DNA of 33,548 nucleotides from Escherichia coli (GTDB taxonomy: Bacteria; Pseudomonadota; Gammaproteobacteria; Enterobacterales; Enterobacteriaceae): assembly GCF_003334815.1 (NCBI RefSeq), contig NZ_QOWO01000040.1; one strand, given 5' to 3'. Both the position numbers and the translations under genes were made by a program. Every line of letters begins with the position of its first letter. Within the stretch, counting starts at the first letter, position 1. This document shows positions 26,406-27,478 of the stretch, one piece after another. Under the pieces are notes generated by a model. That model was not told where the DNA came from and did not search any database. It saw nothing but the letters and a program-made list of their open reading frames with translations.

Positions 26406-26837
26406 ATGCACAAGCAGGCTATTAACTTATTAAAAAATCTTGACCGACATATATTGATTACAGGTGAAACTGGTACAGGTAAATCAACGCTATTAGCCGA
26501 GTTGCGAATAGATGATAATGATTCTAAGTATTATCACTTTCCTGAGATAAATTCTGGTAAGCAGAATTGGGCGCTTTGCGACGAAAATTTCGATGATTTT
26601 GATTTTCTTGTGGCTCCTGAAAAAACTCTAATTCTTGACGGTGTAGCTATAGGGGAAAACTTAGAGGGATCGAAAGTTATACGGTTTATCAAAACAGCCA
26701 GAAAGCATGGAAAACGTCTTATCGTTGTTACATTCCCGTCAGATGGTGATCGAATAAAACCGTTGTTTGGGGCGATTATTACATTGTCCGGTGGAATTAA
26801 TGGCGAAAGAACCTGTGAAGTTGAAATTCTTTCTTAA
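26406..26837 (+). CDS. Mini P-loop NTPase-like protein (Walker A GETGTGKST)
   Basis: 143 aa; Walker A near N-terminus and hydrophobic-D Walker-B-like LILDG. Confidence 0.55.
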   Translation: MHKQAINLLKNLDRHILITGETGTGKSTLLAELRIDDNDSKYYHFPEINSGKQNWALCDENFDDFDFLVAPEKTLILDGVAIGENLEGSKVIRFIKTARKHGKRLIVVTFPSDGDRIKPLFGAIITLSGGINGERTCEVEILS

Positions 26838-26893
26838 TTAAATAAATGCCCCGTGTTTTCTGCGGGGTGTATACCTTTAAAAGGCTAATGAGA

Positions 26894-27478
26894 ATGAAAA
26901 GTATTAATAATGATTTTAACTGGAGTAGAATGTTAGCGTTTTTGTTTATGGCTTTATGTGGTTTTCTGCGGCTTCTTTCCAGAAGCATCATGCTGATGCC
27001 AGCAATGCTGTTAGTTACACTGGCGATTTTTTCCTGTTCTCTGTATGCAGCAGAATTTCAGGGGAACGTTATTCGCGTTCTCGATGGCGACACCATAGAA
27101 GTTAAAACACTACCCGCAAAAATTGTTGTGTATGAAGTTCCGATTCGAGTCCGATTGATAAATATCGATGCCCCTGAAAAGAAACAACCTTTTGGACGCT
27201 GGTCAACAAATCAACTTAAAACCCTGCTCGCAGGCCAATCCGTTACCGTCTCTTATACGCAAACAGACCGCTACGGACGCATTATCGGTCGTGTGTTCAC
27301 GACGAACGGCACAGATGCCAGCCGCTTTATGGTTCAGTCTGGTGCTGCATGGGTATATGAACGTTACAACGCGGATGAGTCATTACCGGCTCTGCAACGG
27401 GAAGCGCAGGAACAAAAACGAGGTTTATGGGCTGACAGTAATCCGGTTCCACCGTGGGAATGGCGACATAAAAATTAA
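26894..27478 (+). CDS. Exported staphylococcal-nuclease-fold (thermonuclease-like) nuclease
   Basis: VLDGDTIEV ... RLINIDAPE ... DRYGRIIGRV ... GLWADSNPVPPWEWR; hydrophobic N-terminal export signal; track ORF 26846..27478 is the same frame. Confidence 0.8.
   Translation: MKSINNDFNWSRMLAFLFMALCGFLRLLSRSIMLMPAMLLVTLAIFSCSLYAAEFQGNVIRVLDGDTIEVKTLPAKIVVYEVPIRVRLINIDAPEKKQPFGRWSTNQLKTLLAGQSVTVSYTQTDRYGRIIGRVFTTNGTDASRFMVQSGAAWVYERYNADESLPALQREAQEQKRGLWADSNPVPPWEWRHKN

Follow-up and report, generated by a model that had tools for sequence, protein, structure and literature searches.

Does a gene for a tiny P-loop protein that stands directly before a gene for a nuclease of the staphylococcal fold mark a functional pair, or have two independent plasmid genes merely come to lie side by side? 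The question is raised by a 33,548-nucleotide (nt) stretch of DNA from Escherichia coli (contig NZ_QOWO01000040.1 of assembly GCF_003334815.1), here called the window, in which the two genes occupy positions 26406-27478. An earlier note, made from the sequence alone, had taken the pairing as unusual. The comparison with related plasmids does not bear this out: the nuclease is a standard backbone gene of plasmids of incompatibility group X (IncX), the P-loop family is scattered over other contexts, and the adjacency stems from an in-frame deletion. We favour, at somewhat better than even chances, the explanation that two separate plasmid accessory genes, one for an exported backbone nuclease and one for a P-loop switch or adaptor, were made neighbours by local rearrangement. 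The relevant features, with sizes in amino acids (aa), are:

26406..26837, + strand: stand-alone P-loop protein of 143 aa, with the Walker A motif GETGTGKST at residues 20-28
26846..27478, + strand: nuclease open reading frame (ORF), 210 aa in its longest frame, probable start at ATG 26894
26849..26867, + strand: GC-rich hairpin (CCCCG, 9 nt, CGGGG) just past the stop codon of the P-loop gene, with no T-run
26894..27025, + strand: added N-terminus of the nuclease ORF; its homologue in standard IncX4 plasmids is codons 1-45 of the gene for a small membrane protein of 105 aa
27026..27478, + strand: signal-peptide tail IFSCSLYA/AE (the slash marks the cleavage position) and SNase domain, with DNA 97% identical to the standard IncX4 thermonuclease gene

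When the window was aligned with standard IncX4 plasmids, homology stopped at 26279 and resumed at 27026. Over this interval, the standard plasmids carry the end of an 85-aa ORF, the gene for the 105-aa protein, which has hydrophobic segments, and the beginning of a nuclease gene (162 aa, with the classical signal peptide MKLTKYVFFFVTIFSGALCA cleaved before AE), but no P-loop gene. The window has the P-loop gene, the conserved GC hairpin and the N-terminal extension of the nuclease ORF instead. At the DNA level, the extension (26913-27027) and codons 7-45 of the 105-aa gene (positions 6630-6744 of locus L001) share 76% identity. The window nuclease is thus an in-frame fusion of the N-terminus of a membrane protein (~45 codons) with the signal-peptide tail and the mature nuclease. 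An intermediate fusion is found in the loci L015-L018 (99% identical), which have 14 extra codons resembling the C-terminal hydrophobic segment of the 105-aa protein. The hairpin is kept in L016 and L019, including a Salmonella IncX-like plasmid; it was not called by a terminator scan.

Only in the 99%-identical lineage are the P-loop and nuclease genes directly adjacent. A small membrane-protein gene separates them in IncX4-like relatives with a P-loop protein 67-68% identical to that of the window, and the Salmonella relative (87%) has the P-loop gene and a remnant of the start of the membrane-protein gene, with no nuclease. The two genes came to adjoin each other in the window because the intervening membrane-protein gene was deleted in frame. 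The pairing that had looked unusual is for the most part an artefact of rearrangement in one rare IncX4-like lineage and not a conserved two-gene system. When window positions 26913-27060 are compared with L016:5415-5700 and L001:6590-6760, the in-frame deletions form a stepwise series, from the two genes of standard IncX4 over the fusion with 14 additional codons in L015-L018 to the shortest fusion, that of the window. Elsewhere among IncX plasmids, the gene for the membrane protein overlaps the start of the nuclease gene by 4 nt, which suggests translational coupling.

The assignment of the second gene to the staphylococcal nuclease fold in the earlier note proved right. The Pfam model SNase (PF00565) matches residues 101-197 over its entire length (model positions 1-107 of 107, E=1.7e-25), and an alignment with the Staphylococcus aureus thermonuclease chains of the Protein Data Bank (PDB) shows all catalytic residues to be present: the D of DGDT, the R of VRL, the D and E of IDAPE and the R of YGR are equivalent to the catalytic or Ca2+-binding residues D21, R35, D40, E43 and R87 of S. 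aureus. The full-length domain and these residues are common to the family and the window protein. Hundreds of plasmids have the gene under the name 'thermonuclease family protein'; it is a standard part of the IncX backbone, conserved between taxB and topB; its product is 54% identical to a nuclease of IncF plasmids. The score of 39.8 bits stays below the cut-offs of the NCBIfam equivalogs NucI and EcnA (250 and 180), and PADLOC returned only a generic SNc match. A literature search on the function of the IncX, IncF or R64 nucleases, YfdA and EcnA found nothing useful. The ParB nuclease of RK2/RP4 is also plasmid-encoded and an SNase homologue, but it belongs to the parCBA stability operon. 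The window nuclease, in contrast, lies in the transfer-distal region from taxB to topB and has no association with a resolvase or partition operon.

Translation of the nuclease probably begins at ATG 26894, which is M17 of the long ORF, or possibly at 26930. The former is favoured because in related plasmids the 105-aa gene begins with a homologous N-terminus; the sequence AAAAGG is located 9 nt upstream. The extension contains two hydrophobic segments (residues 29-41 and 47-69) separated by RLLSRS. The earlier note had seen an N-terminal export signal in this region, a claim that stands only in part. The hydrophobic segments end in the retained cleavage-type motif LYA/AE, but the N-terminus is composite and is not a standard signal peptide; all other relatives examined (IncX4, IncX5, IncF and an IncX-like plasmid with no replicon typed) have classical signal peptides. 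SNase relatives have an N-terminal secretion signal; in the window lineage, a fusion with the start of a membrane protein has taken its place. The positive-inside rule predicts that the second hydrophobic stretch is oriented with its N-terminal end inside and its C-terminal end outside, which would place the nuclease domain in the periplasm. Export of the fused variant is plausible. The precursor would most likely be sent to the periplasm through the composite N-terminus left by the fusion, and the enzyme, in the periplasm or outside the cell, would be expected to cut DNA or RNA non-specifically and in a Ca2+-dependent manner, as is typical of its family. Homology and intact catalytic residues are seen directly; export, activity and the biological role of the nuclease are inferred.

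The 143-aa protein with the GETGTGKST motif is also a genuine gene product, as had been supposed. Its ATG is preceded at a distance of 5 nt by the Shine-Dalgarno sequence AGAGG. Comparison with homologues of 64-87% identity gave pairwise ratios of nonsynonymous to synonymous substitution rates (dN/dS) of 0.10-0.16; the gene is under purifying selection and therefore functional. An AlphaFold2 model calculated from an alignment of 20 sequences is confident, with a predicted local distance difference test score (pLDDT) of 92.9 and a predicted template modelling score (pTM) of 0.88. It supports the P-loop fold that the earlier note had expected, predicting a minimal core of the RecA/KaiC/AAA type. 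In the model, the Walker A motif is situated on a unit of beta-strand, P-loop and helix within a parallel sheet, as in P-loop proteins of the additional strand catalytic E (ASCE) division. The Walker B-like strand reads TLILDG; D78 is not followed by a glutamate. Further conserved motifs are SKYYxF, ENF and ARKxGKRLIVV.

Of the 62 family sequences compared, 55 have a canonical Walker A, and the Walker B position is occupied by D in 48 and by N in the other 14, with the subsequent catalytic E absent throughout (0/62). Position 47, which comes after strand 2, is acidic in 43 members, and Y42, F45, N61, E72, S89, K103, R104, F121 and I125 are conserved outside the nucleotide site. The evidence as a whole agrees with a protein that binds a nucleotide but whose ability to hydrolyse it is doubtful and, in some branches, dispensable. 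Searches in Pfam, NCBIfam, PHROGs and PADLOC produced only generic P-loop matches, and Foldseek against the AlphaFold Database (AFDB) returned only uncharacterised enterobacterial members of the same family. The best Pfam match, nSTAND3 (PF20720; E=7e-6, residues 2-109), is weak and partial, and the protein has no further domains, so that it could not be placed among the STAND NTPases.

The P-loop family is small, uncharacterised and found almost only in enterobacterial plasmids. An exhaustive HMMER search of 1.84 billion cluster representatives recovered only 31 relatives, counted as representatives at 50% identity, and a word-indexed protein collection contained 46 clusters, nearly all of them from Escherichia, Salmonella, Enterobacter, Hafnia, Providencia or Leclercia and every one unnamed or labelled 'ATP-binding protein'. 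The window gene itself occurs neither in standard IncX4 plasmids nor in any of 5,426 complete E. coli genomes. A DNA query of window positions 26330-26990 found no PLSDB record covering at least 80% of it, its P-loop segment being matched only by partial IncI2 hits of 66-67% identity. Positions 26200-27100 likewise had no match of at least 80% coverage in the complete genomes, merely flank matches over 18% of the query or less. The protein collection did lead to close relatives, all of them in draft assemblies. Listed by identity to the window protein, the family members have the following surroundings:

99%, E. coli IncX4-like draft contigs: same arrangement as in the window
87%, Salmonella IncX-like plasmids: YadA-like gene, P-loop gene, remnant of the membrane-gene start, PcfJ-like gene, topB; no nuclease
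78%: VirB10 gene, P-loop gene, ParE toxin gene (opposite strand), type IVb pilus genes
67-68%, IncX4-like plasmids: P-loop gene, 144-aa (or truncated 69-aa) ORF, SNase gene, PcfJ-like or AAA gene, 191-aa ORF, topB
62-64%, large plasmids: among Hok/Gef, DUF905 and HipA genes; no genes of a type IV secretion system (T4SS) in the 4-kb flanks examined
55-60%, IncI2 plasmids: between virD4 and pilN
55-60%, IncF plasmids: between traU and trbC
~59% and 39%: P-loop member directly upstream of topB
~50%, type IVb pilus operon: between PilQ and PilR

In one further member, P0026, the P-loop protein is joined to the N-terminal domain of another family, that of the 268-aa ORF of the window. The family thus lies mostly in or beside T4SS, type IVb pilus and topB gene sets, and as a whole it is a mobile accessory gene of the transfer, pilus and topB regions of conjugative plasmids. 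The ORFs recorded as 'ATP-binding protein' or 'sigma 54-interacting transcriptional regulator' in IncI2 plasmids (R721 and mcr-1 plasmids) and in IncF plasmids belong to the same family, with 55-60% identity, the same length class and the same motifs. However, their neighbours are virD4 and pilN or traU and trbC, not a nuclease gene as in the window, and IncI2 copies often have N at the Walker B aspartate, where the window protein has D78.

The P-loop protein most likely binds ATP or GTP. We suppose that it acts as a small cytoplasmic switch or adaptor in DNA transfer or pilus formation, serving assemblies for conjugative DNA processing or of secretion ATPases, and would be neither a motor nor a partner of the nuclease. 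This role is the weakest step of our explanation. The nearest analogy is archaeal FlaH, a minimal ATP-binding protein of the RecA/KaiC type that is the partner of the secretion-type ATPase FlaI. FlaH is only 16% identical to the P-loop protein and ~80 residues longer, and the likeness, which is confined to the fold, is one that hundreds of P-loop proteins share.

Several observations weigh against two unconnected genes. The order P-loop gene, membrane-protein gene (where present) and SNase gene is found in IncX4-like plasmids over a range of P-loop protein identities from 99% down to 67%. In IncF plasmids, the region from finO to hok/repA2 contains a thermonuclease gene (the product 54% identical to that of the window) followed by the gene for a 127-aa paralogue of the P-loop family (L025:1937-2884). 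This locus was reached through a weaker tblastn match, and comparison of the paralogue with the family gave an hhalign probability of 98.8% (E=1e-16). Other IncF plasmids have, in the same place, a membrane-anchored DUF2726 protein, predicted to be nuclease-related, and then a 55%-identical paralogue of 154 aa (L026:1756-2965). Such a Walker-less paralogue is carried by ~800 PLSDB plasmids, mostly of IncF type, and in IncX5 a family member stands two genes downstream of the nuclease. The recurrence in two unrelated backbones, and in both gene orders, could indicate a functional link, such that P-loop protein, exported nuclease and small membrane protein are one module. The P-loop protein might then keep the precursor of the nuclease inactive, pass it on for export or regulate it, and the module could be used for exclusion of incoming DNA, plasmid competition or turnover of extracellular DNA (eDNA). 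We regard this as improbable, since most contexts of the family lack an adjacent nuclease, the commonest IncX4 plasmids have the nuclease without a P-loop gene, and Sec-type signal peptides do not need a dedicated ATPase. Moreover, the IncF paralogues have lost both Walker motifs (the 127-aa protein has GESASEVDS at Walker A and IIIFNC at the Walker B strand), and the gene order varies between backbones, with intergenic gaps of 56-155 nt that speak against tight coupling. Both genes are typical of variable transfer-distal regions, so co-location by chance is plausible, and the recurrence may only reflect that both are common residents there. Two other points tell against parts of our own explanation: if both hydrophobic segments of the fused nuclease span the membrane, its catalytic domain could face the cytoplasm, and the proposed adaptor or switch role relies on a fold resemblance.

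It is also conceivable, though we rate it as unlikely, that the P-loop gene, alone or with its neighbours, is hot-spot cargo encoding a defence, anti-defence or fertility-inhibition factor outside the transfer machinery. The segment from trbM/kikA to topB is highly mosaic in IncX4-like plasmids, with a YadA-like protein, a 420-aa AAA protein, a PcfJ-like protein and DUF6012 as alternative cassettes. The members in large plasmids beside Hok/Gef, DUF905 and HipA genes, and the nSTAND3 match to a STAND-type NTPase family, would agree with such a role. Yet neither an effector nor a sensor domain is present, a search for phage relatives found none, and PADLOC gave no specific match, its mad8 hit spanning only 23 residues (11-33) around Walker A. 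In many database records, family members are named sigma-54-interacting transcriptional regulators, a function that we consider highly improbable. This frequent name arises because Pfam Sigma54_activat (PF00158) gives a partial match (E=5.5e-4, residues 4-57 against positions 13-65 of the 168 in the model). In addition, the Walker A region ILITGETGTGKSTL resembles the ATP-binding motif of bacterial enhancer-binding proteins (bEBPs), GESGTGKE. Only a third of the domain is matched, however, and the 143-aa protein lacks the loops and domains that define these regulators, having neither GAFTGA nor a Walker B with DE, for which reasons the assignment was rejected. Two separate accessory genes brought together by rearrangement remain our preferred explanation.

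The surroundings of the locus are those of an almost complete IncX4-type conjugative plasmid, which makes up the 33.5-kb window. A 3.6-kb query around the locus matched >2,000 plasmids. The best matches were IncX4 plasmids of ~32 kb with relaxase type MOBP and mating-pair formation type T (MPF_T), such as pYJ3-b, to which the window is ~97% identical except for the patch 26280-27025. NCBIfam models identified ParA, a Rep initiator, DDP1, a MobP1 relaxase, VirB1 and VirB4. In an annotated relative, the genes follow each other in the order virB9-11, taxB (coupling protein), Cag12-family, TrbM/KikA, small hypothetical ORFs, thermonuclease family protein, hypothetical ORFs, topB, hha and hns. The run from virB through topB is entirely on the + strand, and a scan of 25300-28200 revealed no convincing promoter or terminator. 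Both genes thus probably belong to a long transfer-distal transcription unit and are co-transcribed with the virB-topB run. Scans for Rfam families, repeats, promoters and terminators brought up no RNA or repeat feature at the P-loop/nuclease locus. The P-loop gene is preceded by one more ORF:

26115..26327, + strand: 70-aa ORF, a truncated, diverged copy of the 81-89-aa backbone ORF that precedes the locus in IncX4-like plasmids

This ORF contains a degenerate glycine- and lysine-rich motif (GKTGKGKKT) and has weak matches to VirB11, F-type TrbD and P-loop-motif models. That the 70/85-aa ORF might be a decayed member of the P-loop family is unsupported (hhalign probability 0.5%).

Downstream, the interval from the nuclease to the 191-aa ORF and topB (27489-30408) is a variable cassette site, as seen by comparison with L015-L018, L019, L027 and L029. 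In the window it is occupied by ORFs of 108, 268 and 109 aa and a DUF6012 ORF; relatives have a 420-aa classical AAA protein (PF00004) or a PcfJ-like protein of 554-558 aa instead. The DUF6012 ORF (29189-29806, 205 aa, Pfam 5e-33) is missing from pYJ3-b, the closest complete IncX4 plasmid, and its segment has near-full-length matches in 234 PLSDB plasmids. A block of PcfJ, 191-aa ORF, topB and hha is common to the IncX4-like relatives and the IncI2 plasmid R721. Elsewhere in the window, positions 207-299 on the - strand match the AgrB antisense RNA (Rfam RF02891, 55.6 bits). The counterpart in pYJ3-b is annotated with dqlB, a DinQ-like type I toxin gene, and the window segment is thus probably a type I toxin-antitoxin locus. 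A 171-aa backbone ORF at 6630-7142 has an N-terminal J-domain (DnaJ-like, E ~1e-10).

The locus itself adds only a rare rearranged variant to what can be seen in IncX4 plasmids. The P-loop family reaches further, as it is under selection on plasmids that spread resistance genes such as mcr-1 (IncI2, IncX4 relatives and IncF) and is mis-annotated as a sigma-54 regulator. A more far-reaching idea, to which we give little credence at present, is that the family, including its Walker-less paralogues, is either a dedicated partner of exported or membrane nucleases of plasmids (SNase, DUF2726) or a FlaH-like regulator of the secretion ATPases of T4SS and type IVb pili. If true, either reading would provide the first function for a selected, plasmid-restricted family present in thousands of IncI2, IncF and IncX plasmids, mcr-1 carriers among them. 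Once found, the role of the family could reveal an accessory step in conjugation or in the biology of plasmid nucleases.
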